NCBI GenBank assembly: GCA_964655275.1
Contig: CAZZMI010000004.1
Span: 1 to 55,013, forward strand
Source of the DNA: an uncultured Anaerolineae bacterium
GTDB taxonomy: Bacteria; Chloroflexota; Anaerolineae; SpSt-600
Direction of reading: 5' to 3'
Length of the DNA stretch: 55,013 nt
In this document: positions 46,431-48,066 of the stretch, piece after piece
Layout: every line of letters begins with the position of its first letter
Position numbering within the stretch: the stretch's first letter is position 1
Position numbers and translations under genes: made by a program
The notes under the pieces: generated by a model
Databases searched by the model: none
What the model was told of the DNA's origin: nothing
What the model saw: the letters and a program-made list of their open reading frames with translations, nothing else

Positions 46431-46459
46431 TTGACAAATGCGGGAAGGAATGGTAAAAT
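46431..46459 (+). promoter_or_regulatory. Sigma70-type promoter of the proS leader
   Basis: TTGACA-17 bp-TAAAAT with extended TG. Confidence 0.85.
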
Positions 46460-46477
46460 AAAAAACGGAGGAGGCGT

Positions 46478-46555
46478 ATGAAAAAAGTTTTCCCATTGCC
46501 GTGCCCGATACCGCGCCTTTATCCAGACCCCGGTCTGGGTATGCCGGGTTGTTAA
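46478..46555 (+). CDS. Proline-rich leader peptide of proS attenuator (MKKVFPLPCPIPRLYPDPGLGMPGC)
   Basis: GGAGGAGG RBS at 46467-46474, ATG...TAA, 7 Pro of 25 codons, directly upstream of a terminator and proS. Confidence 0.82.
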   Translation: MKKVFPLPCPIPRLYPDPGLGMPGC

Positions 46556-46579
46556 TGGGTTAAGGTGTGGTGTTAACAG

Positions 46580-46615
46580 GGCCGGCCCCCAGACCATAAG
46601 GGGGCCGGTTTTTTT
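46580..46615 (+). terminator. Intrinsic attenuator terminator in the proS leader
   Basis: ccggccccc-agaccataa-gggggccgg followed by 7 T; the 5' arm and loop are complementary to leader segment 46532-46547 (antiterminator). Confidence 0.85.
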
Positions 46616-46638
46616 AATCCCTTAAGGAGGGGTAAGCT

Positions 46639-48066
46639 ATGAGGGAAAAGCTTATTTCCCCGGCCGAGGATTTTTCCGAATGGTATATCCAGGTTATTCA
46701 GAGAGCTGAGCTTGCTGATTATTCCCCCGTCAGAGGATGCATGGTTATAAGGCCTTATGGCTATGCTATCTGGGAAAACATCCAGCAAAGCCTTGATCGC
46801 CGTTTCAAAGAAACAGGCCATCAGAATGCCTACTTTCCTCTCTTCATTCCTTATAGCTTTATCCAGAAAGAGAGCCAGCACATAGAAGGTTTTGCCCCCC
46901 AGCTTGCTATTGTCACCCACGGTGGAGGGAAAGAGCTGGAGGAACCCTTAGTGGTCCGACCTACTTCTGAAACCATAATCGGTTATATGTATTCCCAGTG
47001 GATTCGCTCTTACCGCGACCTGCCTCTGCTCATAAACCAGTGGTGCAATGTGGTCCGGTGGGAATTGAGGACTCGTCCTTTCCTGCGTACTATGGAGTTT
47101 CTCTGGCAAGAGGGCCACACCGCCCATGCCACGTACGAAGAAGCTGAGGAAGAAACCCTTAGAATGCTTAATATTTACCGCGATTTCGCTGAAAACGATG
47201 CCGCAATCCCTGTGATCCTGGGGAAGAAGAGCGAATCAGAAAAATTTGCCGGTGCTCTCCACACTTATACCATGGAAGCCATGATGGGTAACAAGTGGGC
47301 CCTACAAGCTGCTACTTCCCATAACCTTGGTCAGAATTTTGCTAAAGCCTTTGAAATCCGTTACTTGGACCGAAACAATCAGCTTCAATATTGCTGGACT
47401 ACAAGTTGGGGCCTGAGCACCCGCTTTATAGGGGCTATCGTAATGGTTCACGGGGATGAAAAAGGCCTAAAGCTTCCTCCAAAGTTGGCCCCAATCCAGG
47501 TGATAATTGTGCCCATCTGGAAAAGCGATGAGGAAAAAGAGAAAGTCCTGGCCCGAATTGAAGAGCTTAAGCCCCAGCTTAAGGCCTTTAGGGTTAAAGT
47601 TGATGACCGGGAGGAGTATACTCCGGGGTGGAAGTTCCACGAATGGGAGCTAAGGGGTGTACCCTTAAGGGTTGAGATAGGGCCCCGGGATGTGGAAACG
47701 GGTCAAGTAGTTCTCGCCCGCAGGGACACTGGCGAAAAATGGGCTGTCTCCACCGACGACTTGGGGAGCAAAATAGAGAAAGCTCTGGAAGAAATCCATG
47801 CCAACCTTTTCCAGATGGCCAAGAAATTCCGGGACGAGAACACATTCCGGCTTAACGATTACGACGAATTCAAACGTCTCATGGAAAGTGATGGAGGGTT
47901 CGTCATCGCCCCATGGTGTGAATCGCCTGAGTGCGAGAAGGCCATTCAGGAAGAAACCAAAGCCACCATCCGCTGCATACCCTTTGAGCAAGACGGGCAA
48001 CCCGATCGCTGCATCTATTGTGGAAAGGAGACAACCCTTAAAGCTCTCTTCGCCAGGGCCTTTTAG
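46639..48066 (+). CDS. proS: Proline--tRNA ligase (archaeal/eukaryote-like type, no editing domain)
   Basis: [47 protein letters not shown]-terminal Zn Cys and ARAF. Confidence 0.96.

Follow-up and report, generated by a model that had tools for sequence, protein, structure and literature searches.

The leader-peptide attenuators of the trp, his, leu, thr, ilv and pheA operons of Proteobacteria regulate biosynthetic operons and carry cognate codons that are mostly consecutive, and in Escherichia coli the pheM–pheST system is a leader-peptide attenuator placed before synthetase genes. The Pro-codon leaders mgtL and mgtP act partly through Rho, and a lysine leader-peptide attenuator of the lysine (aminoadipate) cluster of Thermus thermophilus was reportedly described by Tsubouchi et al. 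in J Biol Chem in 2005. To our knowledge, proline and prolyl-tRNA synthetase (ProRS) are missing from the usual lists of such attenuators. Leader-peptide control has been predicted for trpS and leuS in Streptomyces, and complementary triples in attenuators are conserved over long distances, according to the relevant sections of Seliverstov et al. (2005; PMC1262725). In Salmonella mgtL and mgtP, the Pro codons tie ribosome progress to the availability of proline, and the RNA structure downstream changes accordingly (PMC3641672). Here we describe the leader of proS, the ProRS gene, on a stretch of 55,013 nt (contig CAZZMI010000004.1 of assembly GCA_964655275.1, hereafter the window) from an uncultured Anaerolineae bacterium of the Chloroflexota.

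We hold it very probable that this leader is a classical ribosome-mediated transcription attenuator that adjusts proS expression to how much Pro-tRNA(Pro) is available. An attenuator of this kind, read through Pro codons, had been proposed in a sequence-only reading of the window, and the proposal is borne out by the conservation of the leader, by compensatory changes in both of its folds, by a predicted sensing window that falls on Pro codons 6–12, and by the replacement of these codons with Arg or Lys codons in related leaders. The mechanism is a textbook one, here with a new gene and amino acid and within a reusable scaffold family. A literature search combining 'prolyl-tRNA synthetase' and 'leader peptide' gave as its sole match a table row, in the part of PMC2836559 concerned, on a Vibrio 5' untranslated region (5'UTR) linked to T-boxes. 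No published description of leader-peptide attenuation of proS was found in a search that did not extend to a survey published in 2010 by Lopatovskaya, Seliverstov and Lyubetsky (which PMC4833913 and PMC10272879 cite); that survey, whose title covers aminoacyl-tRNA synthesis operons, may list such cases, which bears on novelty.

The proS leader and its conservation

The elements of the leader are collected in Table 1. All those listed in the sequence-only reading, from the promoter to the terminator, were found in place when the sequence was reread, and the energy fold added a 12-bp outer stem, absent from that list, which encloses the 1:2 region. The Shine–Dalgarno sequence of the leader open reading frame (ORF), GGAGGAGG, ends 3 nt before the leader ATG, with its GGAGG core 6 nt away. 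The Pro codons are codons 6, 8, 10, 12, 16, 18 and 23 (CCA, CCG, CCG, CCG, CCA, CCC and CCG), no two of them adjacent; proline thus takes 7 of 25 leader codons, compared with 5.9% genome-wide, and four of the seven lie within the 7-codon stretch 6–12. In this genome CCA and CCG, at 17% each, are used less often than the other two Pro codons, and three tRNA(Pro) genes, one per anticodon, cover CGG, GGG and UGG. The leader fold reaches -79.1 kcal/mol, against -61.2 +/- 4.7 for shuffled sequences (z = -3.8; 0 of 200 shuffles equally stable). The terminator hairpin is contained in this energy fold and is missed by a simple terminator scan, whose loop limit is 8 nt while the loop here has 9. The proS ATG lies 23 nt past the T run.

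The 450 nt upstream of proS were read in the 50 of 61 genomes, that of the window included, in which a ProRS relative was found. The leader is kept in 8 of 8 relatives of the same family (seven genomes of the same genus and one of another genus), and these eight leaders share the Pro block, the segments and the terminator. In two genomes of other families (L017 and L021) the segments and the terminator are kept with an ORF that is different, yet Pro-rich. In the alignment of 11 proS leaders, GGTCTGG and CCAG(A/G)CC are invariant, the column of the leader ATG is invariant or nearly so, and the terminator stem varies by compensation. Among the best 80 ProRS relatives in public genomes, read with 400-nt flanks, the leader was seen in only one, of the same genus, so its direct placement before proS is patchy. 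In another genome (G016, locus L016), the region about 100–165 nt before proS holds a Pro-rich ORF of 17 codons, preceded by a good ribosome-binding site, and a G+C-rich hairpin unlike that of the leader; the hairpin has no clear U-run terminator and the covariance model described below gives no match there, and this ORF may be a diverged or translational version of the leader.

The 11 proS leaders lend support to each of the two alternative folds. Pairing reaches 85.6% in the terminator form (29.5–52.0% in slid controls), with 10 of its 32 pairs changed on both sides, and 93.7% in the antiterminator (at most 54.5% in slid controls). The 8-bp core of the antiterminator is paired in all 11 leaders, with G:C replaced by A:U in two.

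The promoter deserves a separate word. Three promoter-like sites occur in 45800–48400, against 2.4 +/- 1.6 in shuffled sequences; the match alone is not significant, and what counts is therefore its conservation within the genus, both hexamers being conserved across eight same-genus leaders.

Table 1. Coordinates of the proS leader, of proS and of its neighbours in the window
Feature	Positions	Strand	Description or basis
Sigma-70-type promoter	46431..46459	+	TTGACA 46431-46436, 17-nt spacer with extended TG, TAAAAT 46454-46459; 11 of 12 matches
Leader ORF Shine–Dalgarno, GGAGGAGG	46467..46474	+	near predicted transcript 5' end
Leader ORF	46478..46555	+	ATG start at 46478, 25 codons and TAA, 7 Pro codons
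Predicted sensing block	46493..46513	+	Pro codons 6, 8, 10, 12 (CCA, CCG, CCG, CCG) with one-codon gaps; nascent-RNA fold model
Outer stem, 5' arm	46508..46519	+	extends the anti-antiterminator; pairs with 46562-46573, 12 bp in energy fold
Segment 1	46520..46529	+	core CCAGACC; pairs with segment 2
Hairpin 1:2	46520-46528 with 46533-46541		
Segment 2	46532..46547	+	core GGUCUGG, then GCCGG; partner is segment 1 or segment 3
Outer stem, 3' arm	46562..46573	+	energy fold and compensatory changes
Intrinsic terminator	46580..46615	+	11-13 bp G+C-rich stem (46580-46590 with 46600-46608), 9-nt loop, seven U at 46609-46615
Segment 3	46582..46595	+	CCGGC-C-CCCAGACC; terminator 5' arm and part of loop; antiterminator partner of segment 2
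Antiterminator pairing	46532-46539 and 46543-46547 with 46582-46595		TGTTAA 46550-46555 also pairs with TTAACA 46573-46578
proS Shine–Dalgarno, AAGGAGGGG	46624..46632	+	read from sequence
proS, regulated gene	46639..48066	+	archaeal/eukaryote-type prolyl-tRNA synthetase, 475 aa; TIGR00408
hflX	42943-44277		
145-aa ORF	44284-44721	-	divergent from proS
535-aa ORF	44733-46340	-	divergent from proS
Family 2 glycosyltransferase	48228-49220		

A scaffold family and its codon blocks

Of 151 genomes of the class, 71 contain a match at E <= 0.01 to a covariance model (R1) built from the 11 proS leaders only, and about 35 contain one at E <= 1e-4. The scaffold that R1 describes consists of CCAGACC (or CCGGACC), GGUCUGG and CCAGACC followed by a terminator, the third segment lying in the 5' arm or the loop of the latter and the leader ORF stopping at segment 2 or shortly past it; the proS leader of the window scores 113.2 bits with R1, a value to be read knowing that it is one of the 11 sequences from which R1 was built. 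Seventy loci were fetched and, with four earlier proS loci, gave 77 matches, for which leader ORFs were extracted by rule and downstream ORFs were named with NCBIfam. Fifteen of the matches directly precede proS, 13 of type I and 2 of type II, and Pro-rich leaders stand before both kinds of ProRS (TIGR00408 and TIGR00409). Seven others precede a gene for a phosphoesterase (Pfam Metallophos) or a TIGR00730 gene, and six of these seven have proS 1.0–2.4 kb downstream on the same strand, the weak match L126 having none. Arginine genes follow 18 matches (12 argG, 5 argC, 1 carA), lysW–lysX follows 14, and homocitrate synthase follows 18 at 15 loci, three of which carry a tandem pair. The remaining 5 of 77 stand before other or unidentified genes (L098, L099, L118, L121 and L124) and may be false matches.

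The scaffold is strongly conserved over these 77 matches. Segment 2 reads GGTCTGG exactly in 46 and with one mismatch in 18; among these 64, the stop codon lies 8 nt after the start of segment 2 in 51, and CCAG(A/G)C is present downstream in 51. The proS leader of the window differs in having its stop codon 21 nt after the start of segment 2. A T run of at least four ends 69 of the 77 matches. The family has no counterpart in Rfam 15, so a model could be contributed.

The codon block of the leader follows the gene that lies downstream. Codons were counted in the 12 positions before segment 1, with the frame set automatically, which misframed L005 and L070. Leaders linked to proS (n = 19, 3 skipped) hold on average 3.53 Pro, 0.74 Arg and 0.21 Lys codons, and Pro is strictly the highest in 17 of the 19, with one tie and one misframed leader. 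Leaders of arginine genes (n = 15, 3 skipped) average 2.73 Arg codons, Arg being highest in 10 and tied in 1; those of lysine genes (n = 26, 6 skipped) average 3.46 Lys codons, Lys being highest in 23 and exceeded by Arg in 3. The genome-wide shares are 5.9% for Pro, 6.2% for Arg and 4.9% for Lys; this comparison is given without a p-value because the relatives are not independent. The match between codon and gene spans many families, both ProRS types, and operons where another gene comes before proS. Exchangeable codon blocks on a single scaffold amount to a natural codon-swap experiment, which supports ribosome-mediated sensing. The tail that most leader peptides share is a by-product of the RNA: what is held constant there is the nucleotide sequence, which the proS leader of the window reads in another frame.

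Covariation across the family again favours both folds. The alignment of the 77 sequences was fitted to the terminator form and hence not to the antiterminator. In the terminator form, 85.3% of positions are paired and 449 cells are changed on both sides, against 164 +/- 12 in shuffled alignments; the terminator helix itself reaches 98% pairing, and each of its 8 pairs shows changes on both sides. The outer stem shows double compensatory changes within the genus, and all 10 of its 10 pairs covary across the 77 members. The antiterminator is 92.3% paired, a value reached in 0 of 500 shuffles, and its 6-bp core 97.1%, with one covarying pair (AU in 25, GC in 13). In segment 1, A positions are often G across the family, which turns A:U into G:U and retains pairing.

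The genome of the window also carries T-boxes, elements that sense tRNA charge. The possibility raised in the sequence-only reading that an Rfam T-box match might explain the region came to nothing: at gathering scores over the whole window Rfam gave no T-box and no other match, and in 46300–46700 at E up to 10 it gave no T-box and just four weak unrelated matches of 18–22 bits. The proS leader as a T-box (RF00230) was ruled out, having no Stem I, specifier loop or T-box sequence. The same Rfam model finds seven T-boxes elsewhere in this genome, at 101–122 bits, before pheS, serS, a class I synthetase gene, a thrS/alaS-like gene, a class IV aminotransferase gene, a gene for a PLP enzyme and one unidentified ORF. 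One uncultured hot-spring Anaerolineae would then use two kinds of tRNA-charge sensor, T-boxes and leader peptides (at proS and lysW). Among 38 upstream loci of proS in relatives, Rfam gave no match at gathering score; a permissive search found a full-length, sub-threshold T-box before proS in five of the relatives (L013, L014, L015, L028 and L031), at 58–91 bits against a gathering score of 93 and with E values from 1e-10 to 6e-19, which standard annotation would miss. A CCC triplet after the GAA of the specifier region, in one of these alignments, would fit proline. The presence of a proS T-box in five relatives shows that control of proS by tRNA(Pro) charge has been selected for in the class.

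These observations lead us to favour, by a little over even chances, a wider view in which Anaerolineae have re-aimed one evolvable attenuator module by swapping only its codon block, to Pro before proS of both types, to Arg before argG, argC and carA, and to Lys before lysW–lysX and homocitrate synthase, sometimes in tandem, and in which the module has replaced the proS T-box in some lineages. If this is true, the module is a ribosome-read counterpart of the T-box with an exchangeable specifier codon. The family would account for how proS, arginine genes and lysine genes are regulated in many genomes where no such annotation exists, and it may offer a compact, re-programmable amino-acid sensor for use in thermophiles or in synthetic biology.

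Several individual members may be recorded here. The genome of the window has a second model match, at contig C26:8716-8832 on the minus strand and directly before lysW and lysX, with a promoter, an Arg/Lys-rich ORF and a terminator much like that of proS, and with segments 2 and 3 that differ (UCCGGAGGG / CCCUCCGGA); the genus has leaders of this type in three further genomes (L102, L106 and L107). A regular-expression scan of the genome of the window gave 20 loose matches, among which the proS leader alone carries the scaffold. A phylum-wide sample of 151 genomes gave matches at E <= 1e-4 in only two, that of the window and one of another class (G187), in which a Lys-rich leader with the same scaffold stands before homocitrate synthase (L216). 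The tandem Lys-codon switches before homocitrate synthase lie at 161-269 and 331-447 of L089, 108-214 and 279-395 of L090, and 1501-1607 and 1664-1750 of L113. At L099 (156-278) the segment motifs and a Pro/Gln-rich ORF precede the gene of a binding protein from a branched-chain amino acid ABC transporter, and the weak match at L098 (1501-1605) precedes thiamine diphosphokinase.

A Cys codon (46502-46504) lies between the sensing Pro codons of the proS leader; a Cys codon so placed is seen across the same genus, in the sister genus and, two per leader, in two leaders of another lineage, the relatives concerned being L010, L097 and L104. ProRS enzymes misactivate cysteine; with only about two independent lineages, the Cys codon may be there by chance.

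Ribosome position and the weighing of alternatives

The choice between the folds was modelled on nascent RNA ending at 46597, just 5' of the terminator 3' arm, with a ribosome footprint at each codon. The probability of the antiterminator is 0.00 without a ribosome and with the A site on codons 1–5 or 18–26 (the stop codon included), and about 1 on codons 6–15; three footprint sizes agree, except that the smallest gives only 0.57 and 0.87 for codons 6 and 7. The predicted sensing window therefore opens at the first Pro codon and includes Pro codons 6, 8, 10 and 12, with codon 16 marginal and codons 18 and 23 outside. The sequence-only reading had spoken of a ribosome stalled on the Pro codons in general; in the model, codons 6, 8, 10 and 12 have the sensing role, and codons 16, 18 and 23, which lie inside segments 1 and 2, do not. 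Because the nucleotides of the segments are conserved while the reading frame differs between genera, the latter three are by-products of the helices. An equilibrium fold with the complete terminator was also considered as a model of the switch; it gave no clean switch and the nascent-RNA model was used instead.

The same calculation was run on 47 leaders of the family, chosen by rule (25 of 72 were skipped; the windows of L065 and L066 came out empty or one codon long). The antiterminator probability stays under 0.5 in 46 of 47 leaders when the ribosome sits at the stop codon, and in 38 of 47 when there is no ribosome. The cognate residue is more frequent inside the predicted window than outside it: 27% against 2% for Lys, 25% against 16% for Pro, and 19% against 7% for Arg, the last on seven leaders.

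We propose that transcription begins a few bases upstream of the ribosome-binding site of the leader, and that a ribosome would translate the 25-codon leader while RNA polymerase proceeds. When charged tRNA(Pro) is ample, the ribosome would reach the stop codon and either cover segment 2 or depart, so that the 1:2 hairpin and the outer stem fold; segment 3, then free, would pair with segment 4, and transcription would terminate at the U run, 23 nt upstream of proS. When charged tRNA(Pro) is short, the ribosome would presumably stall on Pro codons 6–12, masking one arm of the outer stem together with segment 1; GGUCUGG of segment 2 would then pair with CCAGACC of segment 3 as it emerges, the choice being a kinetic one, and with the terminator blocked proS would be transcribed. 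Low ProRS activity would act like a shortage of tRNA(Pro), which would make the loop self-correcting. As far as the models go, every feature of a classical attenuator that can be tested in silico is present: an ORF with its ribosome-binding site, cognate codons, a terminator, a mutually exclusive antiterminator and selection between the two by ribosome position.

A number of points weigh against this reading. The predicted window spans ten codons, of which only four are Pro, with Leu, Cys, Ile, Arg and Tyr codons also inside it. With the full terminator, the equilibrium fold favours termination everywhere (P >= 0.55), the antiterminator rising to no more than 0.45, when Pro codon 12 is in the A site, so the decision must be kinetic, like that of the classical systems, which is assumed. 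Nine of the 47 modelled leaders adopt the antiterminator when no ribosome is present, and the automatic rules could not handle 25 of 72. The arginine class is less clean, another residue being the highest in 4 of its 15 leaders. GGUCUGG and CCAGACC are nearly invariant across the class, beyond what is seen in ordinary attenuators, and the model does not explain this; the three segments may carry a further function, for example as a polymerase pause or a factor site. Finally, the evidence is computational throughout.

The alternative that survives best, unlikely as we judge it, is that a ribosome-mediated attenuator is at work that reports a broader signal, such as slow peptide-bond formation at proline, the status of elongation factor P (EF-P) or overall translation capacity. 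It has reportedly been suggested that mgtL and mgtP of Salmonella, with their Pro codons, sense such a broader signal, and proline is intrinsically slow in peptide-bond formation. Several Pro leaders elsewhere in the family have two or three adjacent Pro codons and would depend on EF-P; this also disposes, as a rule for the family, of the suggestion in the sequence-only reading that alternation of Pro with other residues serves to avoid EF-P-dependent stalling. Against a broader signal, the proS leader of the window has no adjacent Pro codons, the gene that it precedes encodes the synthetase of that very amino acid, the same scaffold with Arg or Lys codons before arginine or lysine genes argues for amino-acid-specific sensing, and sister lineages place a T-box, which is a charge sensor, on proS.

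It is very unlikely, in our estimation, that the GGUCUGG/CCAGACC scaffold is instead the binding site of something acting in trans, be it a protein, a tRNA or a small molecule, and that the ORF is incidental or modulatory. The three segments are almost invariant across the class while the terminator stem and the outer stem vary freely, as such a site would have it, and some leader-ORF elements of Actinobacteria failed, when mutated, to act as classical attenuators, according to the passage of PMC1262725 that mentions them. A single shared ligand, however, cannot explain a codon block that changes with the pathway, the ORF is kept with its start codon and with its stop codon 8 nt after the start of segment 2 in 51 of 64 cases, and no Rfam family matches. 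A segment with two partners is, moreover, expected to evolve slowly, and the long-range conservation of complementary triples, which the same part of PMC1262725 reports for trp attenuators, fits the invariant segments seen here. That there is no regulation at all, only a leaky terminator and a chance ORF in the 5'UTR, or else an unrecognised T-box, is extremely improbable: the promoter scan by itself is not above chance, as this would predict, but the leader is conserved with compensatory changes over many genera, its fold has the z-score given above, and no T-box appears in 46300–46700 at E up to 10 with a model that finds seven elsewhere in the genome.

The surroundings of the attenuator can be summarized briefly. 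The proS product scores 613.6 bits with TIGR00408 (cut-off 437). The upstream 535-aa ORF is on the opposite strand, so the terminator cannot belong to that neighbour; neither this ORF nor the 145-aa one was assigned to a family in an NCBIfam search. The sequencing runs that contain this DNA are hot-spring metagenomes, and 1 of the 24 runs is RNA. One metatranscriptome contig of 462 nt, from a 98%-identical strain, covers 46609–47067, starting inside the U run and entering proS; it is a single contig of low depth in which the leader is uncovered, and since contigs show neither RNA ends nor RNA levels nothing was concluded from it.

Comparison with known systems

The proS leader resembles the trp, his, leu, thr, ilv and pheA attenuators in its 1:2, 2:3 and 3:4 segments, in having its sensing codons just 5' of or at the start of segment 1, in a stop codon that would let a terminating ribosome cover segment 2, and in that an untranslated leader would lead to termination. 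It differs from them in that its four cognate codons are spaced by one codon and in the extra outer stem around 1:2. With the proS T-box (RF00230) it shares the gene, the presumed signal, namely the charge of tRNA(Pro), and the output, a choice between terminator and antiterminator; the T-box, unlike the leader, binds uncharged tRNA directly and does not need translation. As in mgtL and mgtP, to the extent that these are covered in the part of PMC3641672 concerned, a short leader ORF with Pro codons would steer downstream RNA structure; mgtL and mgtP control Mg2+ transport and virulence genes and combine with other signals, whereas here a plain intrinsic terminator precedes the cognate synthetase gene.

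The comparison with the lysine leader of Thermus concerns gene context alone: the Lys-codon members of the family precede the same kinds of genes, homocitrate synthase and lysW–lysX, while the element described here is a proS one. Closest in design are pheM–pheST and, as far as the relevant sections of PMC1262725 describe them, the trpS and leuS leaders of Streptomyces, which have in common with the proS leader an ORF of cognate codons, alternative hairpins, a U run and a synthetase gene, such that a low level of charged tRNA gives more synthetase. The proS leader differs from these in the amino acid (proline), in the gene, in its occurrence in the Chloroflexota class Anaerolineae and in having no detectable sequence relationship to them, and it stands apart from all three in that it belongs to a scaffold reused for three amino acids.

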